From Thermodesulfobacteriota bacterium (GTDB taxonomy: Bacteria; Desulfobacterota_D; UBA1144; Nemesobacterales; N074bin48), in the NCBI GenBank assembly GCA_041572575.1, contig JBFFSH010000068.1:1-13924 (forward strand): a stretch of DNA of 13,924 nt. Direction: 5' to 3'. The notes beneath the pieces were generated by a model. That model was not told the origin of the DNA and ran no database searches. It worked only from the letters and a program-made list of their open reading frames with translations. Shown here piece by piece: positions 1 to 13,924 of the stretch. The stretch's first letter is position 1; each line of letters opens with the position of its first letter. Both the position numbers and the translations under genes were made by a program.

Positions 1-921
1 AATAACCTTTGCCGCTGTAGTCTTGGCAGTTCCAAAATCACCCATTAATGCAAGTATGGGGTGCGGGAGGTCTGCAACATATGCGAATGTTAAGTCACTC
101 AAGAAAAGGAGATAATCTGCTTCCTGGATATTGATATAATTGAACAGTCTATAAAGTTCATTTAGCTCTGATTTAATAGGTTCAACCTGCTTTTTTTGAT
201 GAGAGTAGCTTTTAAATACCGGTGGTAGTAATTCAAGTATCGACCAACCGCTTTCATGAATAAGCACTCCACCCCAGTTTCCAAGATCATACATTATTGT
301 TATCTCGCTTTTTGCAACTCTATTAAATAGTTTATGCTCTTTGCCATCAAATAGAGCCTTGGCTTCTGCTATATTTAATGCTTCAGCCATTGAATTAGAG
401 TTAGTGGTTTTCTGATACTTATCCCAGTAGTTACCCGTCAACCAAAGTCTAAAGTCTTTGCCTCTGATCTTGTAATACTCAAAGTGGCTGCCTCGTTTTA
501 TTTGAGCGTATGCTGTTTTGTCTGAATCATGGAATAGTTCAATGTCATCATTTAAAATCAGATCAACAAGCTTTTCAGATTGTGATTTATTTTGTGATTT
601 CTCATTTGGAATATCGGTATCACTTAAATCAGAATTGTGATTATTATCCAGATAAGGTTCAATATTTATGTTATATCTTTCGGCAAGTGACTTGGCAGCC
701 TGTAAGGGTGATAAACCCTTGAAGTGTGCTTCTATCTCGATTGCATCGGCAGATTTTTCACAGCCGAAGCATTTTCCATGAGTACCGTAGTTGTGGAATG
801 AAGGTGTTTTTTCTTCATGAAAGGGGCAATGTGCTTTCTTGTTTTTGAAATTGATTCCATATTCGTTAGCTACGGTTTCAAATGGGACTTGGTTTTTTAT
901 ATGTTCAAAAATATTATCCAT
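1..921 (-). CDS. CHC2 zinc-finger (primase-type) plus P-loop NTPase replication protein; partial, C-terminus beyond the left edge
   Basis: Read by hand: ATG at 921 with GGAGG at 931-935, open to base 1. MDNIFEHIKNQVPFETVANEYGINFKNKKAHCPFHEEKTPSFHNYGTHGKCFGC contains the CPFH...CFGC Zn finger. The last visible residues, PILALMGDFGTAKTTAAKVI, contain a Walker A-like GxxGxAKT (nt 19-42). The start overlaps the stop of the 914-1171 ORF. Confidence 0.88.
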   Translation of the reverse strand, partial: MDNIFEHIKNQVPFETVANEYGINFKNKKAHCPFHEEKTPSFHNYGTHGKCFGCEKSADAIEIEAHFKGLSPLQAAKSLAERYNINIEPYLDNNHNSDLSDTDIPNEKSQNKSQSEKLVDLILNDDIELFHDSDKTAYAQIKRGSHFEYYKIRGKDFRLWLTGNYWDKYQKTTNSNSMAEALNIAEAKALFDGKEHKLFNRVAKSEITIMYDLGNWGGVLIHESGWSILELLPPVFKSYSHQKKQVEPIKSELNELYRLFNYINIQEADYLLFLSDLTFAYVADLPHPILALMGDFGTAKTTAAKVI

Positions 922-1171
922 TAATGACAACCTCCATTCCTTTAATATTCAGTTCCGAGAGGTATTCCTTTAATACATGACCTTTAATAATCCGCTTGGA
1001 ATGGTAGTCACACAGGCCGTTTATACAGACTGTGGCTTGTTTTATCTCGGCAATTGTTGAGTTGCCGATTTTGATAATAATTGGTAAACTTATTGTAGTT
1101 GTAGAATTAAAGTTATGAGTGCTCGAGGGTGTTGCCGCACCTTCGGGCCTTTTTTGTTTTTTCTTCATCAT
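914..1171 (-). CDS. Small hypothetical protein of the element's early operon (85 aa)
   Basis: Start overlaps the stop of the HTH gene (1168-1171) and stop overlaps the replication gene start (914-921), consistent with translational coupling. No domain recognised. Confidence 0.65.
   Translation of the reverse strand: MMKKKQKRPEGAATPSSTHNFNSTTTISLPIIIKIGNSTIAEIKQATVCINGLCDYHSKRIIKGHVLKEYLSELNIKGMEVVING
1062..1090 (+). promoter_or_regulatory. Sigma70-type promoter, antisense to the early operon
   Basis: TTGCCG (1062-1067), 17-bp spacer, TAAACT (1085-1090), with extended -10 TG at 1082-1083. Confidence 0.55.
1097..1155 (+). ncRNA. Putative ~60-nt cis-antisense RNA; 5' end approximate
   Basis: Inferred from the promoter at 1062-1090 and the terminator at 1121-1155 on the same strand, opposite the early operon. 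Confidence 0.45.
1121..1155 (+). terminator. Rho-independent terminator on the + strand
   Basis: GCTCGAGGGTG-ttgccg-CACCTTCGGGC is an 11-bp stem whose two G-U pairs form only on the + transcript, followed by C and T6 (1150-1155) and further Ts. Confidence 0.7.
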
Positions 1172-1374
1172 TTACTTCCTGTTTTGATTTGATTTTCTTT
1201 GATCCAGTTATCTATATCCTGAGGATTGTAGTAAATATTTTTACCGATACGGATTAAAGGGATTTGGCGTGTGCGTATAAGGTGATCTAACCTGTACTTT
1301 TTAGCACCGAGGGCGGGATAAAGCTCAATTAACTGTTTTCTATCTACAAGACTTTGGTTGTTATCTGGTGTCAT
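1168..1374 (-). CDS. Excisionase/AlpA-like helix-turn-helix DNA-binding protein (68 aa)
   Basis: Size and the motif LIRTRQIPLIRIGKNIYYNPQDIDNWI match MerR-like/HTH_17 excisionases. AAGGAGG RBS upstream (cctcctt at 1383-1389 on +). Confidence 0.8.
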   Translation of the reverse strand: MTPDNNQSLVDRKQLIELYPALGAKKYRLDHLIRTRQIPLIRIGKNIYYNPQDIDNWIKENQIKTGSK

Positions 1375-1405
1375 ATGTATGACCTCCTTGTGTTTATTAG
1401 ATTTG

Positions 1406-1467
1406 TGATAATTATAATCATGAGATAGAATGTATACAGATTACAAATATATTTGTATATATACAGA
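1406..1467. promoter_or_regulatory. Divergent promoter/operator region of the element
   Basis: Lies between divergent genes. Perfect 16-bp palindrome TACAAATATATTTGTA (1442-1457), overlapping palindrome TGTATATATACA (1454-1465), TATACAGA direct repeats (1433-1440, 1460-1467), and TATAAT on the minus strand (1411-1416). Confidence 0.5.
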
Positions 1468-1500
1468 GATTTTTGTACTTGATTATTCATAAGATCAGAT

Positions 1501-2532
1501 ATGAAGATAAATATATTAATTAATCAAATTTCCAGTAGATTAGATTGGTCACAGGAACAAACAAGATTTGCTATAGAAGAACTAGGTGAATATAGAACGG
1601 TTCTAGATTATATGGAATTTCTCATGGTTTGCTCTGAAGCGAGTAATCCTGATGATAGGTTTGTACAAGTATCTAATTTTATTAAATCATCTACTGAAAA
1701 TAATGAAATAGAAACATTAACAGAATTTTTAGATCGTGATGCTTGTTTTTACTGTTTGGGATTATTCAATTATATAGATATTAATAATAATTATTATAAT
1801 AAACTAAACAAAGCAATATATTTTGATAGAGATTTATATGAATCGGATGAGCTTGATAATCATAAATCATTTATACATTGGGAACTTCCAGGTAAATATT
1901 CGCGATTGATAAAAAAAAAATCAATGGAGGGTGAAATATTTGTAACTAGAGATAGATTAAGTAAACATAATGAAAATTTATGGAAAGATATTAATTATGA
2001 AACTAAACTTGGGCTGTATATAAAAAATAATGTTTTTTATGATAATTTGACTTATCGAATATTCGATAAGTATGTAGATCATATTCTAAATAATTACAAA
2101 ATAGAATTAAGTGAATTATTTGCTCAGGTTTTCAAAAGAAAGAAATTACTAGTTTTCAATATCGAGGTATTTCGTAAATATGCCCTTAATACTCATTTAA
2201 TGAATAAAGAAGATCAAAAAAACTTTATCAATTTATTTAAAAACCATTTATTCAAAAGTAATGAATTAACTCAGAAAAGATACTATAAATATTATTGCTT
2301 AGTAGAAATCCTTAAAAAAAGAGGTTACGAAGTATTTGAATCCATTAAAATGGTTGCCAATGAAGAAAAGGCTGGTTATAGCTCAATTAAAACAAGATAT
2401 TATGAAAAGAGCGCAGAATCTAAAAAAAACAATACAAGTTTATCAGACCTCATACAAAAATACGGATTTCAAAACACCCTTGAGGAATTAGCAGATAGAA
2501 TCGAAAGTAAAAAAAATTCAATGAATAAATAG
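1501..2532 (+). CDS. Hypothetical protein (343 aa), possibly the element's regulator
   Basis: Long ORF in very AT-rich DNA, divergent from the excisionase operon. The C-terminal segment VFESIKMVANEEKAGYSSIKTRYYE looks HTH-like. No clear RBS and no family recognised. Confidence 0.7.
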   Translation: MKINILINQISSRLDWSQEQTRFAIEELGEYRTVLDYMEFLMVCSEASNPDDRFVQVSNFIKSSTENNEIETLTEFLDRDACFYCLGLFNYIDINNNYYNKLNKAIYFDRDLYESDELDNHKSFIHWELPGKYSRLIKKKSMEGEIFVTRDRLSKHNENLWKDINYETKLGLYIKNNVFYDNLTYRIFDKYVDHILNNYKIELSELFAQVFKRKKLLVFNIEVFRKYALNTHLMNKEDQKNFINLFKNHLFKSNELTQKRYYKYYCLVEILKKRGYEVFESIKMVANEEKAGYSSIKTRYYEKSAESKKNNTSLSDLIQKYGFQNTLEELADRIESKKNSMNK

Positions 2533-2536
2533 TTCA

Positions 2537-2705
2537 TTGCTACAGTTTTATTCTCGTTTTTAATCATTTAAACTCATTAAAACACCAAACCAAAATATAA
2601 TAAAATACCAGCTATGGCACTGTTTTTAAAGGATATTCTCAGTAGAAATCTTTAAGACTCAATTAAGCACAAATCAATGGGAAAGGATTAAGAGTCACTT
2701 GCTCT
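2537..2705 (+). repeat. Inner, diverged copy of the att arm region, ending in an inverted tRNA anticodon-arm fragment
   Basis: 2537-2585 matches 3703-3751 at 40/49 and 2624-2679 matches 3788-3843 at 47/56 (hand count, ungapped). The reverse complement of 2686-2705 is AGAGCAAGTGACTCTTAATC. Confidence 0.85.
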
Positions 2706-2830
2706 CTGGTGACATGATACATTAGGAGTCAATCGATCTGGTTTTCAAGCATAGGCTTAATCACTTATAGGTTGATCGTTGAATAATAATCTAAATTTAT
2801 ACAACTGACCTTAATAGTCTGAAATAATGC

Positions 2831-2883
2831 TTGACTCTATATTAAATAATTGATATAAGGAGTTACATAAGGATGAAGGAGGT
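2831..2883 (+). promoter_or_regulatory. Candidate sigma70 promoter and strong RBS of the lipoprotein gene
   Basis: TTGACT (2831-2836), 17 bp, TATAAG (2854-2859) preceded by TGn. AAGGAGGT at 2876-2883. Confidence 0.45.
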
Positions 2884-2889
2884 GCGGGG

Positions 2890-3513
2890 GTGTATAAATA
2901 TCTAATAATTGTAAGTCTATTTGTATTTCCATTCTTAACAAGTTGTGCAACTATGATTAGGGGAACAACAGAAGATTTACAAATCAATAGTGAGCCTGAT
3001 AAGGCAAAAGCTACAATTTCAACTGGAATGTCATGCACAACACCATGTGCAATAAATTTAAAAAGGAATCAGTCTTATACCATCAAGTTTGAAAAAGAAA
3101 ATTGTCAGGACACAATGACTAGCGTCTATCCGAGTTTAAGTGGTTCGGGAGTATTATTGGGAGGAATTATTGATTACGGCACAGGTGCTGTATACGATTT
3201 GAAGCCTAATCCAGTAGTAGTATCTATGGCTTGTGGTGAAGATCGTTTCACACAACAACAAAAACCTGAAAGTTATATAGATGCTCAGTTGAAAATAGGT
3301 GATACAATAGATCAGGTGCATGAACAAGGTATAGTAATTCCCCATGACACATGTAAAAAAGAAAAGAATATAGATAATGAAAATTATCAACTTTGGGATT
3401 TTGCTACAAATTCATGTCAAACAGAAAAGATTAAGGGACATGCACTGCTATTCCGTGAGGTTAATTTGGTAGAAATAAGACAGGTGAAAGATATTAATGA
3501 TTTAGACTTTTAA
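2890..3513 (+). CDS. Lipoprotein with a PEGA-like N-terminal domain and a possible SmpA/OmlA-like C-terminal domain
   Basis: GTG start after a perfect SD. Hydrophobic signal ending in lipobox LTSC. CATMIRGTTEDLQINSEP...CTTPCAINLKR...YTIKFEK is typical of PEGA-domain lipoproteins. The C-terminal LKIGDTIDQV...W.F...LLF pattern only loosely resembles SmpA/OmlA. Confidence 0.75.
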   Translation: MYKYLIIVSLFVFPFLTSCATMIRGTTEDLQINSEPDKAKATISTGMSCTTPCAINLKRNQSYTIKFEKENCQDTMTSVYPSLSGSGVLLGGIIDYGTGAVYDLKPNPVVVSMACGEDRFTQQQKPESYIDAQLKIGDTIDQVHEQGIVIPHDTCKKEKNIDNENYQLWDFATNSCQTEKIKGHALLFREVNLVEIRQVKDINDLDF

Positions 3514-3519
3514 TAATTT

Positions 3520-3556
3520 GTATAGAGGGGGGGGGTATGTATTACCCTCCTTATAC
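3520..3556. terminator. Imperfect hairpin after the lipoprotein gene, possible terminator
   Basis: GTATAGAGGGGGGGGGTA...TACCCTCCTTATAC just after the stop codon. Imperfect stem containing a G9 run, with a weak U tract. Confidence 0.35.
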
Positions 3557-3690
3557 TAATTTGTTCAAATACATAAAAAATATCCTCTTAATTAAGACAC
3601 GTAATTTCCCACGATACTTTATTAATTATAAAAAGTCTCCTTATTCTCATACTCATAGCATCAATGATAAAACCTACGAACAATAATTTA

Positions 3691-3715
3691 TTGCTACAGT
3701 TTTTGCTACAGTTTT
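3691..3715 (+). repeat. Tandem 12-bp direct repeat TTGCTACAGTTT, candidate tyrosine-integrase arm-binding sites
   Basis: Copies start at 3691 and 3703, about 150 bp from the tRNA crossover. A third copy starts at 2537. Confidence 0.7.
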
Positions 3716-3851
3716 ACTCTCTGTTCTAATCTTCTAATCTCAATCAAACACAACTCAATTGTATTATGAAGCTGTCTAATGTACTTATTTTAAAGGATTT
3801 TCTCAGCTTAAAACTTTGAGACTCAAATTAGCACAAATGAATGAAATAGCT

Positions 3852-3896
3852 CTGTTAATCACTAGGTCGGGGGTTCGAGCCCCTCCTCCGGAGCCA
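3852..3896 (+). pseudogene. 3' half of tRNA-Asn(GTT), the attR junction; not a complete tRNA
   Basis: CTGTTAA anticodon loop, TCACT stem, AGGTC variable region, GGGGG-TTCGAGC-CCCTC T arm, CTCCGGA acceptor strand, discriminator G, CCA. Upstream has no 5' acceptor strand, D arm or anticodon-stem partner. Confidence 0.9.
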
Positions 3897-4062
3897 AATA
3901 TTTTAACTAATCTCATTAATTTTTTCCTAAAATTAAGCTTAAGTTTATTAGTATTTTTCATTTAATAGCTATTTTATTTTCTTAATTAGATTTTTGTTAT
4001 TAAAAATAGTATAATTATCTAAATTTTTTGGACATTTTTATCATTATAGAGATAATTGGTAT

Positions 4063-4761
4063 ATGGGATCAATAGATATATGTTATCGCTTTAAATTAGA
4101 CGATAACGAAGAAGAGGTTTTTGATTTAAAATTCAATGAGGATACCTTTGAATTAATTTCGGATGGTAATGAGAGGCTTCCGCTTTGGTCCAAGCTTGAT
4201 TATCATAAGTGTCCCCATTGTCCACTTGATTCTAAGACAGTTCCAAACTGCCCGGTTGCCAAGAATTTTTCAAATGTGGTTTTACGATTTGATCATATAT
4301 TCTCATTCCATGAGATTGAAATAGAAGTTATTACAAAAGAGAGAACAGTATCATCAAAAACAACAGCCCAGCGTGGAATAAGCTCATTGCTGGGATTAAT
4401 ATTTGCTGCAAGCGGCTGTCCTCATACCTCACTCTTTAGACCAATGGCAAGGTTTCATCTCCCTCTTTCTACTGAACAGGAAACAATATTCAGGGTAACT
4501 GGTATGTATCTCCTTGCTCAGTATTTACAGGATAAAGAAGGTAAAAATGCATCATTTGATTTTGATGGTCTAAAAGAAATGTATAATAATCTGCACCTTT
4601 TAAATACAAAAATAGCAGATCGTATAAGAGATGCTGTTACAACAGATTCTTCGGTAAATGGAATTATACTTCTGGACATGCTAACAAAGCTTATGCCGAT
4701 TGCCATAGATAGAAGTTTAGAGGATATTAAGGGTTTATTCTCTCAGTACAATAAAGAATAA
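4063..4761 (+). CDS. Conserved Cys-containing hypothetical protein, DUF6901-like
   Basis: Motifs W.KLDYHKCPHCPL...CPVA, ERTVSSKTTAQRGISSLLG, SGCP...PMARFHLP and MYLLAQY recalled as characteristic of this family. Confidence 0.7.
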   Translation: MGSIDICYRFKLDDNEEEVFDLKFNEDTFELISDGNERLPLWSKLDYHKCPHCPLDSKTVPNCPVAKNFSNVVLRFDHIFSFHEIEIEVITKERTVSSKTTAQRGISSLLGLIFAASGCPHTSLFRPMARFHLPLSTEQETIFRVTGMYLLAQYLQDKEGKNASFDFDGLKEMYNNLHLLNTKIADRIRDAVTTDSSVNGIILLDMLTKLMPIAIDRSLEDIKGLFSQYNKE

Positions 4762-4762
4762 A

Positions 4763-5581
4763 TTATGCAGATTTTATATCTATCTGCTTGATCCCGCTAA
4801 CCTGCTCGCCAAGAAAGCTTGCTGCGATAGATAAAAAACTATCCGATACATCAGTTAAGTAAAACTGTTTATTTCCTGATTTGTTCTCCGGATTTTTAAT
4901 ACCCAATTCCTCAAGAATGCTTAAGGTCTGCGTAGTAACCTGCTCAGCTGAATCAACAAGTTTAATATCATCTCCTACAACTCTTTGAATTAATTTTTTA
5001 AGCAGAGGATAGTGTGTACATCCAAGAATTAGAGTATCAATCTTTTTGTTAATTAAGGGTTTCAGATATCTTACGGCAACTTGCTCGGATATAGGATCAT
5101 CAATCCATCCTTCCTCAGCAAGTGGTACAAAGAGCGGACAGGATTTAGTGTGTACGGTTATGTTTGGACCTATTTTATTTACGGCTTCTCTATATGCCTC
5201 ACTCTTTATGGTTGAAGGTGTACCAATTACACCCACCACATTGTTTCTCGTAGTTTCTACAGCTTTTAAAGCTCCCGGCTCCAGTACACCAATTACCGGA
5301 ATATCCAAAGTAGATTTTAGGCTGTCAAGTGCAAATGCTGAAGCTGTGTTACAGGCCACAACTAAAAGCTTTATATTGTGCGAACTTAGGAATGCTGCAT
5401 TACCAAGTGAATAGGAGATAACCGTACTGCTGGATTTTGTGCCGTATGGTACTCTAGCCGTGTCTCCCAGATATATAATATTTTCATTAGGAAGTCTCTT
5501 TCTAATTTCTTTAACTACGGTAAGACCGCCTATGCCGGAATCAAAAATTCCTATTGGCAATTGTTGTTTTTGATTATTCAT
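4763..5581 (-). CDS. murI: Glutamate racemase
   Basis: IGIFDSGIGGLTV, DTARVPYG, VVACNTAS and LILGCTHYP signatures with both catalytic Cys. Confidence 0.97.
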   Translation of the reverse strand: MNNQKQQLPIGIFDSGIGGLTVVKEIRKRLPNENIIYLGDTARVPYGTKSSSTVISYSLGNAAFLSSHNIKLLVVACNTASAFALDSLKSTLDIPVIGVLEPGALKAVETTRNNVVGVIGTPSTIKSEAYREAVNKIGPNITVHTKSCPLFVPLAEEGWIDDPISEQVAVRYLKPLINKKIDTLILGCTHYPLLKKLIQRVVGDDIKLVDSAEQVTTQTLSILEELGIKNPENKSGNKQFYLTDVSDSFLSIAASFLGEQVSGIKQIDIKSA

Positions 5582-5625
5582 TGAAATATAAATAATAGTT
5601 GCAGACTGGCTGGATTAATTTATAT

Positions 5626-6990
5626 CTAATCAAACAATATTTCAATTGCCTCGCCTATATTCTCGATGCCGATATATTTTTGCGTAGATTTTTTAAAGTC
5701 TTGATTATCATAGTTTATCTTAGGTAATACGAATCTTTTGAATCCAAGCTTCTGAGCTTCTTTTAATCTCACATCGACCTGAGATACGCCTCTAATCTCT
5801 CCTGATAGTCCTACCTCGCCAAATACAATGGTTTCTGCACTAACAGGCTTATTCAAAAAACTTGAAACCAGTGAAATGCAAATACCCAGATCAACCGCGG
5901 GTTCTTCGATTTTAACACCGCCTGCAACATTCATGAAAATATCCTGTGAAGTGATATGAAGTCCGGCTCTTTTATCAAGCACAGCTACTAAAAGCGAGAC
6001 TCTGCCCTGATCAAGTCCGATAGTTGTTCTTCTTGGAACACCAAAATTACATGGTGATACAAGTGCCTGAATTTCTACGAGTATGGGTCTTGTACCCTCT
6101 ATACTCGGAGAAACAACCGATCCCGAGCTGTTTAACGGGCGTTCAGAAAGAAAGATTTCCGATGGATTGGTAACCTGCTCCAGACCGTCATTTGTCATTT
6201 CAAATACACCAATTTCGTTAGTGGAGCCATATCGGTTTTTTACGGCTCTTAAAATTCTATAAGGATGAGATTTGCCGCCTTCAAAATAGAGTACAGTGTC
6301 AACCAGATGTTCCAGTACCTTGGGGCCTGCAATTGAACCCTCTTTTGTTACATGTCCTATTAAAAAAAACGAAATACCTTTGTTCTTGGCATATTGCACT
6401 ATTTTAGATGTGCATTCTCTTATCTGACCTACAGATCCGGGAGCGGATGGAAGGTCTGCAGAGTATATCGTTTGAATAGAATCTATTACAACCACACCAG
6501 GATCGTTTTTTTCGGTATTGTTAATTATGCTGTCAATGTTTGTCTCTGTGACCACATACAGGTTATCCCCATTTACATTTAATCTTTTTGCTCTAATTTT
6601 TATTTGGTTGGACGATTCTTCTCCAGTTACATATAAAACTTTTATTCCGTTTTCAGAATATTTTCCAAAAATCTGCAGGGCTAGTGTTGATTTTCCTATT
6701 CCGGGATCTCCACCTATTAGAACAGTAGAGCCAGAGATCAGCCCACCCCCGAGAACTCTGTCCATCTCGGCAATATCGGTTTTTATACGCTGCTCATTTT
6801 CTGATGAAATCTCATTAATTAATACTGGTTTTGATTTGGGATTCAGAACAGGACTTGGTTTTTCCTTGGTACCTATTTCTTCTACAAACGTATTCCACTG
6901 CTCACATGCAGGGCACTTCCCTATCCACCTTGGTGAGTTGTTACCGCAATTTTGGCAAACAAATATTACAGTGGCTTTGGACCTTTTCAT
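5626..6990 (-). CDS. radA: DNA repair protein RadA/Sms
   Basis: N-terminal CxxC...CxxC, Walker A GDPGIGKS, VVIDSIQT, KNRYG motif and Lon-like C-terminal GEVGLSGEIR. Confidence 0.97.
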   Translation of the reverse strand: MKRSKATVIFVCQNCGNNSPRWIGKCPACEQWNTFVEEIGTKEKPSPVLNPKSKPVLINEISSENEQRIKTDIAEMDRVLGGGLISGSTVLIGGDPGIGKSTLALQIFGKYSENGIKVLYVTGEESSNQIKIRAKRLNVNGDNLYVVTETNIDSIINNTEKNDPGVVVIDSIQTIYSADLPSAPGSVGQIRECTSKIVQYAKNKGISFFLIGHVTKEGSIAGPKVLEHLVDTVLYFEGGKSHPYRILRAVKNRYGSTNEIGVFEMTNDGLEQVTNPSEIFLSERPLNSSGSVVSPSIEGTRPILVEIQALVSPCNFGVPRRTTIGLDQGRVSLLVAVLDKRAGLHITSQDIFMNVAGGVKIEEPAVDLGICISLVSSFLNKPVSAETIVFGEVGLSGEIRGVSQVDVRLKEAQKLGFKRFVLPKINYDNQDFKKSTQKYIGIENIGEAIEILFD

Positions 6991-7002
6991 ATTAAGATGA
7001 AC

Positions 7003-9453
7003 TCATGAGCTTAGCTCTTCTGAATTATTTTCCGAGTCTTGTCCTCCACCCGAGGTATTTTTTGCACCTTTCACGGATTTTCTATACTCTTCGGCCAGTT
7101 GTTTAAGCTTCTTGCTAACAAGATAGTTTACAGTGCCTTCCTTATAGCTGCCATCTGAAAGCATTTGTCCAGCAGGAGTGCCTGTAAGAATTTGCAAGGC
7201 ATCCTCTATGGTCTCAATAGAATGTATGTGAAATTTCTTGTTTTTTACAGCTTCGATTACTTCTTTTTTAAGCATTAAATTTTGAACATTTTGATGAGGT
7301 ATAAGTACTCCATTCTCTCCATTTAATCCCTTTTCTTTACAAACATGGAAAAATCCTTCCACTTTTTCATTTACTCCACCTATTGGCTGAATCTGCCCTT
7401 TCTGGTTTACTGAACCCGTGATGGCGAAGCACTGTTTAATGGGAATTTCAGACAGGCTTGAGAGAAGTGCTACAAGTTCTGCTGCAGATGCGCTGTCTCC
7501 GTCAATCATCTCATAGGTCTGCTCAAATCCCAGACTTGCAGATAGACTCAAGGGTATGTCCTGAGCATATTTTGCTCCAAGATAACCATTTAAAATCAGT
7601 ACACCTTTGTCATGAATATTTCCGCTTAGCTTTGCTCTTCTTTCTATATTAATAAGACCTTCAGCCCCAATATATGTTTCACATGTTATTCTGTTGGGCT
7701 TTCCAAATGCATAGTCGCCCATATTATAGACAGCAAGACCGTTTATCTGTCCAACGGTTTGTCCTGATGTAGAAATCATGATATTGCCGTCAGTAATCAT
7801 TTCCCTTATTTTCTCTTCGATCATATTCGATCTGTAGATCATTTCGTCTATTGCTCTTTCAACATCTGCTCTTTTGATGTTCTTGTTATTGCCATTAACC
7901 TCACTCCAGTAATTAGCTTCTTTAATTATTTTTGAAATTGCACCAAATTGCACAGAGAGCTTGTCCTGGTCTCCTGCAAGCCTTGTGGAATACTCTAAAA
8001 TGGCTTCAACACCGCTCCTATCAAATGTTTTTAGATTTTCTTTTTCACCAATAGACTTTATAAGGCAGCAATATTTATAAAGAATATCGTCATCCTTTTT
8101 TACAACAGAATCAAAGTCTGCTTTTACCTTAAAAAGTTTTCTAAAATCCTCATCGTAAGTGTAAAGCAAGTTGTAGATTTGCGGATTGCCCATTATTATA
8201 ACTTTTACATTCAACTCCATGGGTTCTGGTCTCATTCCCATAGTGCTCATAAGGCCGTAATGCTGCGAAACATCTTCGATTCTAAGCTCCCGATTTTCTA
8301 AAACTTTTTTAAGAGAGTCCCATACAAGCGGGTATTTAAATAAGTCATTAGCTTCTACAACCAGGTAGCCCCCGTTTGCCTTTGCAATCGATCCTGCGTG
8401 AATCATTGTGAAATCAGTAACAAGCGCTCCAAATCGCGCCTCTCTTTCAATTGATCCAAAAAGGTTTGTATAAGTAGGATGAGTTTCAAATATTACGGGC
8501 GCCCCCTCGGTATTGGAGTTATCTATAAATACATTGACCTTGTATTCGGTAAATGTAGGTTCAGGCTTTGGCATTGCTAATGGAAATCCGGGTGGTGCAT
8601 TTGAACCCCTGTCTGGCAGGAAAGTGTATATGTTATCGAGAATGTGTTTTTGTACCTCTGCAAGGTATTCAAGGATCTGTGATTTGTCGGTGTATTTTTC
8701 TCTTAAATTGTCAACTATATTCTGTACAGCGAACAAGGCTACTTTTTGTTCAAGCTCTTTTACCTTATCCATAAATTCCTGATCCATCTTGCGTACTTTT
8801 TTTACAACAGAAGAGATTTCGTTTTCAACTACTTCCTTTCGTTTTCTTATGATTTCCTTAAATGAATCATCTAGCTTGGCATAATCTTCCTGTGTTATTG
8901 GCTTGCCGCCGACAATGGGTATGGTAACGATTCCTGTAGGAGTGAACTGAACCTGCATTTCTTCAGTTTTTGCAAATTCCTGCAGATTATCAAAAAGAAT
9001 GTTTTTATCTCTTTGGAATATGTTGGTTAAATTTTGTCTTTCTTCTTCATATTCTTTTGTCTCGAATGCTTTAGGAAGGTTTTCTTTTAGTAGCTCAATG
9101 AAATCTTCCATATCTTTTTTGAAGAGCTTTCCTGTACCTGTGGGAAGTGTGAAGGCTTTCGGCTCAGTTGGATCTATAAAATTATACACATAGCACCAAT
9201 CGAATGGCTGCGGTTTATCCTTGCTTATAGATTCAAGCATATGTTTTACCGATGTAGATTTCCCAACACCTGATCTTCCAGCAATATAGATATGGTAACC
9301 TCTGTTATTCATACCGAGTCCAAAATTTAGCGCTCTAACTGCTCTGTCTTGTCCTATCAACTGATCACAGCTGCCTATTTCATCTGTATTTTTGAATCCC
9401 AGATTTGAAAGGTCACATTTCTTATATACTTCAGTATGTTTAAGTTCAGCCAT
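7003..9453 (-). CDS. Lon-family S16 protease, LonC/LonB-like with coiled-coil insertion
   Basis: IGQDRA, Walker A GRSGVGKS, DWCYVYNF, ANGGYLVVEA (degenerate Walker B), catalytic DGDSASAAEL and GGVNEKVEGF (Ser-Lys dyad). AGGAG RBS. Confidence 0.92.
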   Translation of the reverse strand: MAELKHTEVYKKCDLSNLGFKNTDEIGSCDQLIGQDRAVRALNFGLGMNNRGYHIYIAGRSGVGKSTSVKHMLESISKDKPQPFDWCYVYNFIDPTEPKAFTLPTGTGKLFKKDMEDFIELLKENLPKAFETKEYEEERQNLTNIFQRDKNILFDNLQEFAKTEEMQVQFTPTGIVTIPIVGGKPITQEDYAKLDDSFKEIIRKRKEVVENEISSVVKKVRKMDQEFMDKVKELEQKVALFAVQNIVDNLREKYTDKSQILEYLAEVQKHILDNIYTFLPDRGSNAPPGFPLAMPKPEPTFTEYKVNVFIDNSNTEGAPVIFETHPTYTNLFGSIEREARFGALVTDFTMIHAGSIAKANGGYLVVEANDLFKYPLVWDSLKKVLENRELRIEDVSQHYGLMSTMGMRPEPMELNVKVIIMGNPQIYNLLYTYDEDFRKLFKVKADFDSVVKKDDDILYKYCCLIKSIGEKENLKTFDRSGVEAILEYSTRLAGDQDKLSVQFGAISKIIKEANYWSEVNGNNKNIKRADVERAIDEMIYRSNMIEEKIREMITDGNIMISTSGQTVGQINGLAVYNMGDYAFGKPNRITCETYIGAEGLINIERRAKLSGNIHDKGVLILNGYLGAKYAQDIPLSLSASLGFEQTYEMIDGDSASAAELVALLSSLSEIPIKQCFAITGSVNQKGQIQPIGGVNEKVEGFFHVCKEKGLNGENGVLIPHQNVQNLMLKKEVIEAVKNKKFHIHSIETIEDALQILTGTPAGQMLSDGSYKEGTVNYLVSKKLKQLAEEYRKSVKGAKNTSGGGQDSENNSEELSS

Positions 9454-9576
9454 ATTCTACTCCTAATGAAATATTGAGATTTACTGTAATATTACTAAGT
9501 AATGACTCATATTGTAATAGAGTTATACAAAATAAAAAAGGTTATTTTTAAATTTAATAAAAATAAGCAGTTGAGA

Positions 9577-10602
9577 TCAGCTTTGAGGCTCTATAATGAC
9601 CTTGATAGAATCATCTGATTTTATAGCCAGTTCAAAACCTTTTTGTGTCTGGGATAGGGGTAGCCTGTGGGTTATCATCTCGGCTACATTCACCCTGCCG
9701 CTGCTTATCATGTTAAGCGCTACCGAGAGATCTGCCTGTGAAGCGGCGTAGGAGCTGATAATCTTAATTCCTTTCCACCAAATCTCATTGAAATCAATAG
9801 TGAGTTTATACCCGGGGTCAGAAGGAGCAAAGTACAGGATGGTCCCCCCAAGCTCAATTAGTGATAATGCCTGCTTGATGGCAGATGGCGCACCGGTGTT
9901 GACTACTATGAAGTCTGCAAGCCTTCCTTCATTGAGTTCTTTTATGTTTTCACCAATGCTTATATCGGGTCTAAGTACATGATCTGCACCTAGTTTCTTT
10001 GCTGTTCTGAGTTTAAAGTCATTAATGTCGGAAGCGAATATCGTCCCTGCACCCTGTGCTTTTGCATACTGTAAATTTAGAAGCCCTGTCATGCCGCATC
10101 CAATTATTAGGACGCAGCTTCCGGCTTCAAATCCTGCAAGTCTTTGACCGCGTACTACACAGCCAAGCGGTTCTACAAATGAGCCCTGTTCATAGGAAAC
10201 ATTATCGGGAAGCCTGAGCACCCCGCGGTCAACATTAATACTAGGGATTCTGATGTATTCTGAAAATCCGCCGGGATCAAAGTGAGTACTCCTCAGAGTG
10301 TCGCAAGCAGAGTGATTGCCTCTCAGGCAGTGATAGCATGTATTGCATGGGACATGATGTGTGGCAATGACCCTGTCTCCAGGTTTAAAATTCTTAACAT
10401 CGCCTCTTACTTCGACTATTTCTCCTGCGACTTCATGCCCAAGCACAATAGGGGCCTTTGGAACGCGGTACCACTCCATTGTGTCACTACCGCAAACACC
10501 GCTTGCCATGGTTCTTAATAGAATCTCACCGGATTGCAATACTGGCTGAGAGACATTTTCTATACGTATATCAGAGTTGTTGTAATACATTGCTACGCGC
10601 AT
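9577..10602 (-). CDS. Zinc-dependent medium-chain dehydrogenase (L-iditol/threonine dehydrogenase-like)
   Basis: VCGSD, LGHE, structural-Zn motif PCNTCYHCLRGNHSAC, VEPLGC, Rossmann GCGMTG. Confidence 0.92.
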   Translation of the reverse strand: MRVAMYYNNSDIRIENVSQPVLQSGEILLRTMASGVCGSDTMEWYRVPKAPIVLGHEVAGEIVEVRGDVKNFKPGDRVIATHHVPCNTCYHCLRGNHSACDTLRSTHFDPGGFSEYIRIPSINVDRGVLRLPDNVSYEQGSFVEPLGCVVRGQRLAGFEAGSCVLIIGCGMTGLLNLQYAKAQGAGTIFASDINDFKLRTAKKLGADHVLRPDISIGENIKELNEGRLADFIVVNTGAPSAIKQALSLIELGGTILYFAPSDPGYKLTIDFNEIWWKGIKIISSYAASQADLSVALNMISSGRVNVAEMITHRLPLSQTQKGFELAIKSDDSIKVIIEPQS

Positions 10603-10656
10603 TGTTTACTCCGTTTACTCCATAGTGGCATACATAGTTGATTGCCTGAAAAGATA

Positions 10657-11472
10657 CTAAGCATTAGCAGCAGCTTTTTCATTTTCTGATTTTACTTCTA
10701 GGTACAATTTGTGAGCCTGTTTTGGTTTAAGCCCTTCGTGTACTATACCGCGTATGGCTCTTAGCACAGCAACGGGGTTATCGTTTTGCCAGATGTTTCT
10801 TCCCATGTCCACCCCGACGGCACCCTGCTGTAATGCGTTATATGTTAGCTCAAATACATCCAATTCAGTTTCAAGCTTGGGTCCGCCTGCAATAACGATT
10901 GGAGCAGGACAGCTTGTAGTGACCTTTTCAAAATCTTCACAGTAATATGTTTTAACAATATGTGTTCCAAGCTCTGCGCAAATTCTGCAGCAAAGCGAAA
11001 GGTACCGGGCGTCTCTCTTTTCAAGCTCCTTTCCAACTGCGGTAATACCAAGCACTGGAACTCCATATTCCTGCCCCTGGTTTACAAGCTCCGAAAGGTT
11101 TAAAAGCGTCTGTCTTTCATGAGATGAGCCTACAAATACCGATATTCCGATACCGGCTACATTTAGCCTAAGAGCATCTTTTATAGAGGTTGTAATACCC
11201 TCATCTTCTAGCGCCGGACCTACTATGCTTACTCCGCCAGATACTCTTAGCACCACATTTGCGCTCGATTCCGGGTCTACACAGGTTCTAAGCACACCAC
11301 GGGTAAGCATTATGGTGTCTGCATATGGCAAAAGCGGTTCGATTGTTTTTCTTGGTTCTTCTATTCTGTGTGTCGGGCCCAAAAAGTATCCGTGGTCAAA
11401 AGCTAGCATTACTGCTCGACCGGTCTTTGGGTTTATTATGCGGGCCATTCTGTTAGCAAGTCCCCAGTCCAT
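10657..11472 (-). CDS. lsrF: LsrF-family thiolase / DhnA-type class I aldolase fold
   Basis: MDWGLANRMARI, VMLAFDHGYFLGPT, IVKTYYC (catalytic Lys), IVIAGGPK, GAVGVDMGRNIWQ. Confidence 0.9.
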   Translation of the reverse strand: MDWGLANRMARIINPKTGRAVMLAFDHGYFLGPTHRIEEPRKTIEPLLPYADTIMLTRGVLRTCVDPESSANVVLRVSGGVSIVGPALEDEGITTSIKDALRLNVAGIGISVFVGSSHERQTLLNLSELVNQGQEYGVPVLGITAVGKELEKRDARYLSLCCRICAELGTHIVKTYYCEDFEKVTTSCPAPIVIAGGPKLETELDVFELTYNALQQGAVGVDMGRNIWQNDNPVAVLRAIRGIVHEGLKPKQAHKLYLEVKSENEKAAANA

Positions 11473-11513
11473 AATTGTTATACCTCTCTTGAATTTATTT
11501 TGTTAGAGATAGA

Positions 11514-11542
11514 AATTTAATGGATGGCCGGCTTTAAGTCAA
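11514..11542 (-). promoter_or_regulatory. Sigma70 promoter of the lsrF-dehydrogenase operon
   Basis: Minus strand TTGACT (11542-11537), 17 bp, TAAATT (11519-11514), about 40 bp before the ATG. Confidence 0.6.
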
Positions 11543-11601
11543 TTCAGACTTATAAAGATTAACAAGATCTAATTGTAAGATGTAAAATTGGGATAAAAGA
11601 A

Positions 11602-12108
11602 CTATTCGCCTTCCCAAAGACCCACGACTTCAACATCGCCTCTTAAGAATTTTTCTGTCTTACCACTATTTGCTGTTCCATTGTTTGAAGCTGTACTCAC
11701 AACTCCAACTTTACCGGAATCCGGATAAACCTTTATGTCAGGTTCAACCATCGTGGATATACATATATATTTGAGTGTTGTTTCTCCCCTATTTGTGAGC
11801 TGGTGTGCGGATCCTTCCGCAGGAAAAGTAAGGTAGTCACCTTTTGATACAAAGTATGACTCATCACCAAATCTGAGTTCGGCATTTCCTTCTAAAATAA
11901 ATACAGCTTCTTCATTTGAGCAATGATAATGAAATGGGAATGCAGATTTTCCGGGTGGTACTTCATAGATTGAGCAGCCCAGTTTCTCGGCGCCAGAGTT
12001 TTGAGAAAGTGATTTCTTTTTATATTCAAACCTGGAATTGTAGCTGTTAGTATCCCATACAAGATCTTTTTCATTTATGATGTTGGCCATCTTAAGCTTT
12101 TCTTTCAT
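11602..12108 (-). CDS. Cupin-domain protein
   Basis: VPPGKSAFPFHYHCSNEEAVFILEG...GDYLTFPAEGSAHQLTN and YPDSGKV. AAGGAG RBS 8 nt before the ATG. Confidence 0.9.
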   Translation of the reverse strand: MKEKLKMANIINEKDLVWDTNSYNSRFEYKKKSLSQNSGAEKLGCSIYEVPPGKSAFPFHYHCSNEEAVFILEGNAELRFGDESYFVSKGDYLTFPAEGSAHQLTNRGETTLKYICISTMVEPDIKVYPDSGKVGVVSTASNNGTANSGKTEKFLRGDVEVVGLWEGE

Positions 12109-12122
12109 TTTCCATGCTCCTT

Positions 12123-12153
12123 AATACTAAAGCAACTATAATGCTTTAGTATT
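12123..12153. promoter_or_regulatory. Perfect 12-bp inverted repeat upstream of the cupin gene (operator or hairpin)
   Basis: AATACTAAAGCA-actataa-TGCTTTAGTATT directly upstream of the RBS. Confidence 0.55.
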
Positions 12154-12231
12154 GCATAAAAAATAAATCTTTCAATATGCTTATTGAAAAAAATAATTAA
12201 ATTATTGTTATCAAATAAATACAGGAGGGTT

Positions 12232-13416
12232 CTAATTGTTGAGACTTAGTTTGAATGCTTTTAGTGCATGATCGATTTGTTCTTCGGTATGTTTTGCCAT
12301 AAGTGTAGCTCTTATTCTGCACATCCCATCAGGTACAGAAGGCGGCCTGACTGCAGGAGTATAAACCCCATTTTCTCTTAGCGATTTTGCAAAATCGAGT
12401 GTTGGTTGAGCTTCACCTATTAAAACCGGTATTACTGCAGAATGTGATGGCAGCACTGTAAGTCCAATATCATCCAGACCTTGTTTGAATTTGTTTATTA
12501 ATTTCCACAGATATTCTCTTCTCTCCGGTTCATATTCTATAATATCAATTGCTGCCAAAGATGCGGCAAGAGATGCAGCTGGTAATGATGTATCGAAAAT
12601 ATAACTACGTACCCTGTTTCTAATAAAATCAATTAATTTCTGGCTTCCGGCAATATATCCTCCCAGGGAACCGACTGCTTTCGATAGTGTGCCCATGACA
12701 ATAGGAACTCTATCTTCAATGCCGAAATGCTCCGTGCCGCCGCTTCCTCTTTTTCCAAGCACGCCTGTAGAATGAGCCTCATCTATCATGAACATACAGC
12801 CATATTTATCTGCTAGGTCGGCAATCTCGGGCAGGGGTGCAAGGTCACCATCCATACTGAACACAGTATCGGTCACAATTAACTTTTTACATTTTCTGTT
12901 CATGTCTTTTTCCAGTAAAGATTCCAGGTGGTTTACATCCAGATGTTTATAAATCCTGATATCTGCCTTGGAAAGTCTGCATCCATCTATGATTGATGCG
13001 TGGTTTAGCTCATCACTGTAAACAATGTCATCTTTTCCCACCAATGTTGATATTGTTCCAATATTAGCAAGGTATCCAGTGCTAAAGAGGATTGCTGCTT
13101 CGGTTTTTTTGAAATCTGCTAACCGCTGCTCAAGCTGCCTGTGCAGGTCGGTGCTGCCGCTTACTAGCCTTGAGCCTCCTGAGCCTGTGCCGTATTTTTC
13201 AGTGGCTTCAACCGCTGCCTGAATTACTCTTGGCTCTACTGTTAGTCCCAAGTAGCTGTTGGATGATAGGAGAATATATTTTTTGCCGTCAATTATGATC
13301 TCAGGAGACTGTGCGGACTCAAGCTCTGTTAGAATTCTAAACAGGTCTTTGTCCTTTATTACATCCAATTCTTTTTCGATCCAGGATAATAAATCTGCCA
13401 TTTTATAGATAACCAC
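12232..13416 (-). CDS. bioF: 8-amino-7-oxononanoate synthase (class II PLP aminotransferase fold); true start may be the ATG at 13401
   Basis: SSNSYLGL, GTGSGGSRLVSG, DELNHASIIDG, VFSMDGD, DEAH, GTLSKAVG (PLP Lys) and AVRPPSVP. The RPP motif favours BioF over Kbl. Confidence 0.88.
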   Translation of the reverse strand: MVIYKMADLLSWIEKELDVIKDKDLFRILTELESAQSPEIIIDGKKYILLSSNSYLGLTVEPRVIQAAVEATEKYGTGSGGSRLVSGSTDLHRQLEQRLADFKKTEAAILFSTGYLANIGTISTLVGKDDIVYSDELNHASIIDGCRLSKADIRIYKHLDVNHLESLLEKDMNRKCKKLIVTDTVFSMDGDLAPLPEIADLADKYGCMFMIDEAHSTGVLGKRGSGGTEHFGIEDRVPIVMGTLSKAVGSLGGYIAGSQKLIDFIRNRVRSYIFDTSLPAASLAASLAAIDIIEYEPERREYLWKLINKFKQGLDDIGLTVLPSHSAVIPVLIGEAQPTLDFAKSLRENGVYTPAVRPPSVPDGMCRIRATLMAKHTEEQIDHALKAFKLSLNN

Positions 13417-13486
13417 GAACCAGGGAGTAGTTCAATATAGAAAATGTTTGCATGAGGCTATATACTAACAAACAAGTAGTAACATT

Positions 13487-13792
13487 ATGGATAAAATTAA
13501 AAAACTAATTAACCACTTCGACTCATTTGGGGATGTTTTATTATTTTTCCAAATTCTTATTTTTTTAACAATTCTTCCTGTACTCCTAAAAGTATTCTCT
13601 CTTAAAAAGTTGATGGGAATTCTGAGTTCGGATTCTAAAGAAGCTCAGATTAAAGATAGAGCAGAAAAAGTCCTTGAGCTTACTAATCTTGTACTTTATC
13701 GGGATTTTTGGATATACAAAAATATATGCCTTAAACGCTCACTTGCGCTCTATTATTTTTTAAGCAGGATGGGGCATGAAGTAAAAATTTAG
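13487..13792 (+). pseudogene. Lasso peptide biosynthesis B2-like (transglutaminase-like) gene, 3'-truncated by IS insertion
   Basis: NICLKRSLALYYFLSRMGHEVKI matches the B2 CLxRS motif. The reading frame stops where the family normally continues xGV...AHAW. The TAG is formed at the IS junction. Confidence 0.72.
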
Positions 13793-13924
13793 GAGCTCGC
13801 ATAGGACAGCAAAGTATACTAAGCTGAAACTATGCAAAAGAAGTTACTTAAGAATACAAAACTATCAAATAGTAAGATAAGCAAGCTAATACAAATGTTT
13901 GTATTGGAAGTGCCGGCATGTAAA
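13792..13924 (+). mobile_element. Left end of an IS1595-family (IS1016-like) insertion sequence
   Basis: Starts GGAGCT..TAG, resembling the GGGGCT..TAG ends of IS1016-like elements, after AT-rich AAAATTTA. A transposase-like ORF starts 40 bp inside. Confidence 0.7.
13832..13924 (+). CDS. IS1595/IS1016-like transposase, N-terminal 31 aa (partial)
   Basis: MQKKLLKNTKLSNSKISKLIQMFVLEVPACK resembles the KL...L..FVLEV.A N-terminus of IS1016-group transposases. Confidence 0.7.
   Translation, partial: MQKKLLKNTKLSNSKISKLIQMFVLEVPACK

Follow-up and report, generated by a model that had tools for sequence, protein, structure and literature searches.

A reversed tRNA-Lys(CTT) core inside a tRNA-Asn(GTT) island that may be a stranded junction of a sister integrase clade

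The 13,924-nt window analysed here is the entire contig C68 (JBFFSH010000068.1) of a Thermodesulfobacteriota bacterium (GCA_041572575.1; the host, G000), whose assembly is 96% complete, and it carries two attachment (att) sites of a mobile island, about 1.16 kb apart. Judged by comparison with the host gene, the outer site marks where an island that entered tRNA-Asn(GTT) at its anticodon loop ends on the right (attR). The inner site is a genuine att junction that goes back to tRNA-Lys(CTT) and lies in reverse, as an initial annotation of this DNA had proposed; a complete junction of the same kind in another genome, described below, bears this out. The explanation that we favour, and consider moderately probable, is that the inner site is a junction stranded from an element of the type that replaces the 5' half of tRNA-Lys, merged into the Asn island, and that the resident integrase of this island, int61, excises with the outer site only; the inner site is predicted to be unusable by that enzyme. 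The terms P arm, core, attL, attR, excisionase and 'ash' are used in what we take to be their usual sense. The parts of both sites, and int61, are as follows.

2537-2674, + strand: inner P-type arm, with one TTGCTACAG (2537-2545), conserved boxes and GCACAAAT at 2667-2674
2675-2687, + strand: element-side core (C) of the 5'-replacing clade type, ATGGGAAAGGA, by core comparison
2688-2694, - strand: 7-nt overlap, the tRNA-Lys(CTT) anticodon loop CTCTTAA, by comparison with the host tRNA
2695-2705, - strand: 11-nt core arm, D-stem 3' strand and anticodon-stem 5' strand of tRNA-Lys(CTT), where the tRNA match ends
3691-3838, + strand: outer P-type arm, with a TTGCTACAG pair at 3691-3711
3839-3851, + strand: element-side core (C) of the 3'-replacing Asn type, ending AATAGCT, by comparison with Asn attR sites
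3852-3896, + strand: attR, displaced 3' half of tRNA-Asn(GTT) from the first anticodon-loop base (overlap 3852-3858)
C61 953-2002: int61, the resident tyrosine integrase (PF00589, E 2.9e-35; R204, H297, R300, H323 and Y332 present)

From the first base of the loop onwards, positions 3852-3897 agree without a difference (46/46) with tRNA-Asn(GTT) on contig C61, of which the host has a single copy, so that the outer copy is indeed sense tRNA-Asn(GTT). The left end, the integrase and attL, which the initial annotation had left to be found, are all on C61, where the order is rpoH, intact tRNA-Asn, an arm-repeat pair, an IPTL-CTERM gene, the convergent int61 and a small regulator open reading frame (ORF). 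Because tRNA-Asn is followed by DUF6901 and murI in G001, matching the window's right flank, and because rpoH adjoins tRNA-Asn in G025 and G030, this synteny makes C61 and C68 most likely the two ends of one split locus, a tRNA-Asn island whose middle is unassembled and was not found in the assembly. The 29 nt at 3685-3713 recur without change in the arm pair that follows tRNA-Asn on C61, and co-oriented TTGCTACAG pairs flank the outer crossover (3691-3711 and 83 nt behind the loop on C61). The outer core agrees with the Asn attR sites of G089, G038 and G030 at 8/11, 7/11 and 5/11 positions. A satellite-type gene set is present, comprising the integrase on C61, an HTH_17-like protein (below cut-off) and a primase (incomplete).

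The two arms are homologous and in register. Positions 2537-2604 match 3703-3770 at a spacing of 1166 nt and 2612-2704 match 3776-3868 at a spacing of 1164 nt, in agreement with the duplication of about 150 bp seen initially, and in a search against the host genome the repeat extends over 143 columns with 74% identity (E 5.6e-19). The gap from GCACAAAT to the 7-mer is 13 nt in both copies, exactly as annotated, and 7-mer and stem read CTGTTAA-TCACTAGGTCG in the outer copy and TTAAGAG-TCACTTGCTCT in the inner one. The proposal that the same integrase arm occurs twice stands as far as homology goes (43/53 positions ungapped) but not as identity, as the 11 nt beside the loop agree at only 6/11 positions and the TTGCTACAG arm repeat occurs once in the inner and twice in the outer arm (three matches, a number reached by 0/200 shuffles). 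Reversed, the inner loop is one base away from the outer loop (6/7), as had been pointed out. The decayed Thr and Ser 3' fragments in the host are also preceded by this arm family in the same register, and a hidden Markov model of the arm, built from four host sites, detected no fifth strong site.

Positions 2686-2705 are identical (20/20) to the reverse complement of the host tRNA-Lys(CTT) on C71 (ARAGORN positions 23-42), and the tRNA likeness of the inner copy is therefore matched by a host gene. An exact host-tRNA 20-mer is expected by chance at 3.4e-10 per position, or 1.4e-6 over 4 kb, with the loop register left uncounted. The fragment comprises tRNA positions 23-42 only and does not reach the tRNA 5' end. 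The 11 nt of the inner core agree at 10/11 positions with the Lys-5' junction of G041 and with the junction of L111, a metagenome contig, and at 7/11 with the Thr-5' junction of G035, compared with only 2-6/11 for four Asn-3' junctions, the outer site among them. The stem allele AAGTGA of the inner site is also found in the host, in G001 and in L111, and in none of the f2/f7 relatives examined; as the window and L111 carry the allele of G000 and G001, the inner Lys junction likely formed in this lineage. The host tRNA-Lys(CTT) itself is intact, and its native flanks resemble those in G001. The 96%-complete assembly yielded no second tRNA-Lys 5' half, and searches of it with the integrases L027 and L062 found no 5'-clade integrase, the C61-C68 gap being unassembled; the best host match of both queries was the resident integrase (47% and 46%), followed by others at 23-33%. 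The inner overlap agrees with attL at 2/7 positions directly and at 6/7 inverted, and the next arm pair in the window lies about 1 kb from the inner core.

Just downstream of the inner site, CTTAATCACT at 2756-2765 is a sense-strand 10-mer of the Lys loop and stem. A 66-bp mini-inversion by way of this 10-mer was considered and set aside, such a match being present in 10/200 shuffles. It was also considered whether a deleted regulator gene begins in the stretch that follows the inner core; this was rejected, as the best alignments to integrase upstream regions fell elsewhere and only two local alignments were clearly above the shuffle maxima.

Of the order's 101 genomes, two have the reversed Lys junction in exact form, namely the window's own and G041. 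In G041 the shared core is followed by a full tRNA-Lys 5' half and native upstream DNA (C26), and a second contig (C184) holds integrase, arms and an intact tRNA-Lys; G035 contains two further Lys-5' integrases. When two mismatches in the core were allowed, the 101 genomes gave five matches against five for the control, of which those in the window and G041 are real; the match in G005 was dismissed, having no tRNA half on viewing. The reversed Lys junction is also present in three metagenome contigs, two of which (L112, L113) are of the G041 type, while L111 has a twin layout like that of the window. Its arm and core are 92% identical to the window's over 73 nt (inner arm 35/40 ungapped), its tRNA-Lys match stops 12 nt past the loop, and 35 nt beyond lies a second P arm that ends in a tRNA-Arg(TCT) 3' half. 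Matches to the core pattern in genome_contigs (17/17) and viral_contigs (6/6) are followed by no tRNA half and were treated as chance, the arm-plus-core pattern was found in 0 viral contigs, and one distant (25%) viral locus matching a Lys-5' integrase was not used.

Window positions 1-4200 are contained in 20 of the 24 listed sequencing runs, 19 of them at 0.91-0.95 and one perhaps the source. We compared the contigs of four runs (X1, X16, X18 and X20, one of them to about 22%), and as contigs drop rare forms, such forms are invisible in all that follows from them. In X1, X18 and X20, contigs match 2646-2696 and then continue into the reverse complement of a tRNA-Asn 5' half (29/30 letters, by eye), which indicates that arm end and core of the inner type are used at Asn as well, in reverse. 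The suggested switch of target between Lys and Asn finds its support here, a near copy of the inner arm end being joined to the reversed tRNA-Asn 5' half in three of the four runs, and in the integrase tree, where Asn-, Thr- and Lys-5' enzymes form one clade; it is a switch within the 5' clade. A variant in X1, X16 and X18 has the same 24-nt core behind unlike upstream DNA and, after 30 differing letters, an arm pair, and its tRNA match stops at 9 nt (10/11). The distance from loop to arm pair is 46 nt in this variant and in L111, with spacers at 25/35 (by hand). In X1 and X16, contigs run through the inner site and on through the cargo gene that lies between both sites, with 0-1 differences. 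The joins at 2688 for which the initial annotation had proposed a search did not appear: among the joints listed there is no excision, inversion or strand-changing joint at the inner loop, and among the contigs listed there is no empty site running into the cargo gene. A displaced Asn 5' half was found in none of the 101 genomes, where the pattern gave only sites with a normal stem (53 rows) and G001 is 74% complete.

A joint of 3897 to 3685 was considered as a circle and set aside, as the C61 spacer lies between its sides and attL explains it; a joint of 1699 to 4010 (side 20, one contig) was judged unreliable. Island depth is below flank depth in X1, X16 and X20, a figure that gives no share of cells and was not used. 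The run contigs also hold a second, diverged primase/excisionase allele (112-751 and 1087-1312), which indicates that related elements co-occur in the samples and may explain the break in the assembly.

The orientation of the inner site has its counterpart in the int61 family at large. A search of the order's 101 genomes with int61 gave matches at E 1e-50 or better in 31, most of which were fetched, and these comprise 73 distinct integrase loci, with 18 rows without a tRNA in reach left uncounted. A tRNA lies within 2.5 kb downstream of 52 loci, of which 42 face its 3' end and 10 are on its 5' side; seven assignments beyond 800 nt denote the nearest tRNA only. An eleventh 5' case, L027, was assigned manually on the strength of a truncated tRNA-Lys 5' start, and L036 and L037 (2/53) were excluded as another subfamily, which leaves 51 assignable members. 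Integrases of the 5' type, replacing the tRNA 5' half, account for 10 of these 51 and for five tRNA types, and the family as a whole targets 18 anticodon types. The 5' type is confirmed by displaced 5' halves for Lys in G041 (on two contigs), Thr in G035, Ser in G055 and, in another subfamily, Pro in the host, while the remaining 5' calls, without a displaced half, are calls from geometry only; the Thr island (G035 C88) measures about 4 kb and the Ser island about 20 kb. The distance from loop to arm pair has a median of 84 nt in the 3' type (n=42) and 83 nt in the 5' type (n=10), the repeats having been picked automatically with some evident misses. The P arms of both clades are 70-90% alike and the arm repeats are common to both. 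In most host tRNAs the 11 bp on either side of the loop are nearly symmetric (Lys-CTT 8/11, Asn 7/11), in keeping with the established role of the stem as core sites and of the loop as overlap (PMC8371274, in the text available).

Two integrase trees were built, a quick one of 70 rows, from which L028 and L090 (short) and L065 (frameshift) were left out, and a careful one of 27 rows. The orientation label changes three times, compared with shuffled means of about 10 (70 rows) and 8.8 (27 rows), and 0/500 shuffles were as low; as kin share orientation labels, this test measures clustering only. Six integrases, namely those of Asn-5' type from G001 and G035, one Thr-5' and three Lys(CTT)-5', form one clade at 100/100, whereas int61 lies outside it and pairs with the Asn-3' integrase of G030, also at 100/100. 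The core motif sorts by integrase clade. On these alignments, orientation follows integrase clade, which argues against a single flexible enzyme. The initial view that this element family recombines at anticodon arms in either orientation is therefore supported for the family (10/51 of 5' type) and not supported for any one integrase.

Several loci of this kind deserve mention in their own right. In G035, a single tRNA-Asn lies between an integrase of 3' type and a broken one of 5' type (C39; L078, L019). The host contains a complete 11-kb tRNA-Pro(CGG) island (L036, C10:8-11245) that replaces the 5' half, with a 43-nt displaced 5' fragment and GTGTCC-type arm pairs at both ends; its integrase is 48% identical to a 3'-facing tRNA-Asp integrase on C71, which indicates a second subfamily with both orientations in one genome. 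In G056, 11 rows such as L089-L104 form a well-supported clade of many copies, none of them within reach of a tRNA; the int61 family may have expanded here in the manner of a transposon, independently of tRNAs. In G050 (C204, L171), two full copies of tRNA-Asn lie 875 nt apart, with decayed arm sites after the second and, by eye, a small toxin-antitoxin pair between them.

Taken together, these comparisons suggest how the inner site may have arisen. An element of Lys type, or its right-hand module (primase, excisionase, ORF343, arm and core), would have entered an Asn-type island, by recombining with it where the two share sequence or by integrating at a site resembling a core; such entry is likely because both clades share arm repeats and have P arms that are 70-90% alike. 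The integrase and the rest of the tRNA half would then have been lost, leaving a relic of attP or of attR. Of the two roles first offered for the inner site, relic or alternative junction, that of a relic is the better one; as an alternative junction for the resident enzyme it does poorly, as int61 is outside the 5' clade, the cores differ and the direct overlap is 2/7. Several observations weigh against a stranded junction. The 20-mer is still perfect, whereas the decayed Thr and Ser att relics in the host have mutated loops. The tRNA match stops at the core boundary alike in the window (11 nt), in L111 (12) and in the variant (9), and the 46-nt spacing is kept in L111 and the variant in spite of spacers at 25/35, which looks like constraint and not decay. 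A cognate integrase and a left junction could lie in the C61-C68 gap. A single origin of all 5' types of the int61 family is not rejected (approximately unbiased test, p 0.25). Rare forms would have been dropped from the contigs of the four runs, and 14 loose ends lie beyond those listed.

The next explanation, possible but on the whole unlikely in our estimation, is that a nested 5'-clade element has its live right junction at the inner site, or that the site is an internal landing pad. As a landing pad, a short core derived from tRNA-Lys (C-like arm, loop and 11 bp) would stand before the P arm of the 3'-type island itself, and 5'-clade elements would integrate there and ride along, or would combine the core with the arm pair next to it into a second attP. 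The core is free of mismatches and specific to the host allele, the twin layout recurs in L111 with another outer target, and the variant of X1, X16 and X18 has the same 24-nt core and 46-nt spacing behind different upstream sequence. The primase-excisionase module, moreover, is joined to the inner arm and not to the outer one. Contigs C49 and C122 of G035 (L025, L026) also favour this explanation: they contain primase-excisionase modules that are nested in Arg(CCT)-5' and Met-5' islands, 0.2-0.5 kb from the island ends, and that terminate in a core of 5' type whose overlaps are not of tRNA sequence, so that the 5' clade does end up inside other islands. Set against this, the assembly yields neither a 5'-clade integrase nor a second tRNA-Lys 5' half, the inner arm has one arm repeat left with the next pair about 1 kb and not 46 nt from the core, and no listed contig shows the empty site. 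That 3'-replacing islands keep a reversed tRNA-Lys core as a working landing pad, or second attP, for the sister 5' clade is a claim we regard as doubtful.

It is very unlikely that the resident integrase recognises both sites through the shared TCACT stem in either orientation. The arms are homologous and in register, the same arm repeat occurs in both clades, the anticodon arm is nearly symmetric and the reversed loops are one base apart, all of which speaks for such an enzyme; orientation, however, is clustered on the tree, the cores agree at 6/11 positions and sort by clade, the direct overlap is 2/7, and no such joint is among those listed for the four runs. Inverted recombination with attL would in addition, we infer, split the only tRNA-Asn found in the assembly. 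Still more improbable is a 1.16-kb invertible cassette that flips the lipoprotein gene between both sites: the inverted overlaps do agree at 6/7 positions, but they are not identical, the P-type arms are direct, the cores differ (6/11), the cargo gene appears by eye to have its own upstream region (the promoter scan being at background), and contigs of the four runs contain no strand-changing joint. Chance divergence of a duplicated arm, which the AT-rich arms and the single duplication might have suggested, is refuted by the exact 20-mer in loop register, at about 1e-6 over the island, and by G041, where the same core is joined to a full Lys 5' half.

The comparisons with known systems that follow refer to the available text of each source. 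Islander (PMC4383910) reports 5' fragments in 159/3919 islands (4%) and frequent switching of tRNA target, and it filters out internal fragments. The outer site resembles its A-site islands with 3' fragments in having a tyrosine integrase, a restored tRNA, a 3' half that starts at the loop and two-sided arm repeats; unlike them, the window's island holds a second, reversed att core from another tRNA, which the internal-fragment filter would discard. Among 5'-replacing systems, archaeal pTN3-like integrases target the tRNA 5' half, as is seldom the case in bacteria (PMC8371274), and Klebsiella arg2 clade I.d integrates at the 5' end, with islands at both ends in two strains (10.1101/2020.11.02.365908). 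As in these and in Islander's 5'-fragment islands, the element supplies the 5' half and orientation goes with integrase clade; as in arg2 clade I.d, both tRNA ends are occupied, here in G035 C39. Different from them are the share of 5' types in the int61 family (10/51, five tRNA types, with equal loop-to-arm distance both ways), the site at the anticodon loop in place of the D-loop used in Klebsiella, and the inner site of the window, which keeps an 11-bp core only and not a 5' half.

A complex satellite tandem with an unrelated internal attP, for which entry by homologous recombination was proposed, is described in PMC10111431, together with satellites that sit within other satellites, the identity of the 7-bp overlap normally enforced by tyrosine integrases and doubled arm motifs, which keep fixed distances and lie about 81 bp away from the centre. 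The window's island is like that tandem in having terminal att sites of one integrase and an internal att of another, and like those satellites in the order integrase, HTH_17 excisionase and primase and in its doubled motif (about 83 nt here). It differs in the origin of its internal site, a tRNA anticodon arm in reverse, in the homology of its two arms and in the recurrence of the layout with other outer tRNAs. Fragments of tRNA arising from integration are background in the text available of PMC9897764. Islands that replace the 5' half and foreign internal att sites are thus already published, while a search of titles and the beginnings of abstracts, with most subscription papers and supplements outside its scope, gave no description of the int61 family or of a reversed, core-only tRNA site within an island.

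The question of how tyrosine integrases come to switch targets is a long-standing one, and few islands replace the 5' half. The int61 family offers a natural series of 18 anticodon types in both orientations with constant arm geometry, in which paired clades that share arm repeats enter the same tRNA-Asn from opposite sides, and this series makes a specificity rule testable in terms of the 7-nt overlap, the 11-nt core and the integrase. As finders with an internal-fragment filter discard truncated internal sites, such sites are perhaps under-counted. If the landing pad were true, both orientations of one family would assemble composite elements with two addresses and the window would hold a concrete intermediate of target and orientation switching; if the inner site is a relic only, the value lies in the comparative series and not in a new mechanism.

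The genes around the two sites are the following.

1-930, - strand: primase-type protein, N-terminal part with a CHC2 zinc finger (PF01807, E 1.3e-13); the gene exceeds the contig edge
914-1171, - strand: 85-aa ORF without family match
1168-1374, - strand: 68-aa helix-turn-helix protein, likely excisionase (PF12728 HTH_17, E 0.0026, under the curated cut-off)
1501-2532, + strand: ORF343, 343 aa, with its stop codon 4 nt ahead of the inner arm
2890-3513, + strand: lipoprotein-like cargo gene, 207 aa, between both sites (weak PEGA match, PF08308, E 0.005, under cut-off)
4063-4761, + strand: DUF6901 gene of the host flank, also after tRNA-Asn in G001, of the same genus

No continuation of the primase was found in the assembly with five homologues as queries, and the fetched surroundings of primase homologues (3-4 kb) contain no tRNA. 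In position and N-terminus the 85-aa ORF resembles the 'ash'-type ORFs of satellites and may be one of them. The 68-aa protein has homologues of 36-45% identity near the arm end of the related islands L023, L025, L026 and L081, and is likely, from this placement and its domain, to be the excisionase. ORF343 has no match in Pfam or NCBIfam, its best Atlas score (0.84) is a lead only, and a weak homologue (24%) adjoins an integrase in G005. A search of 900-4100 against Rfam gave no match, and a promoter scan was at background (4 compared with a mean of 7.8).

Positions 4763-13924 hold ordinary host genes, including a glutamate racemase-like gene, RadA-like and LonB-like genes, a Zn dehydrogenase, a DeoC/LacD-family aldolase, a cupin, a class I/II aminotransferase and a 101-aa ORF without Pfam match. 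The terminal sequence of C68 is common to many contig ends and is likely an insertion sequence. Elsewhere in the host, C54:6337-7405 (L038) is an integrase-less tRNA-Thr(CGT) island of about 1 kb made up of an arm, a lipocalin gene, an arm and a decayed Thr 3' half, and C10:361-1168, nested in the Pro island, has a related lipocalin gene (78% aa, 85% nt), the arm family of L038 and a decayed Ser 3' half. A short relic lies behind the arm pairs of two different islands, at about C61 2960-3010 and C71 3340-3400; by eye it reads like the C-terminus of a C65-type integrase, and an IPTL-CTERM cargo gene comes next in both.

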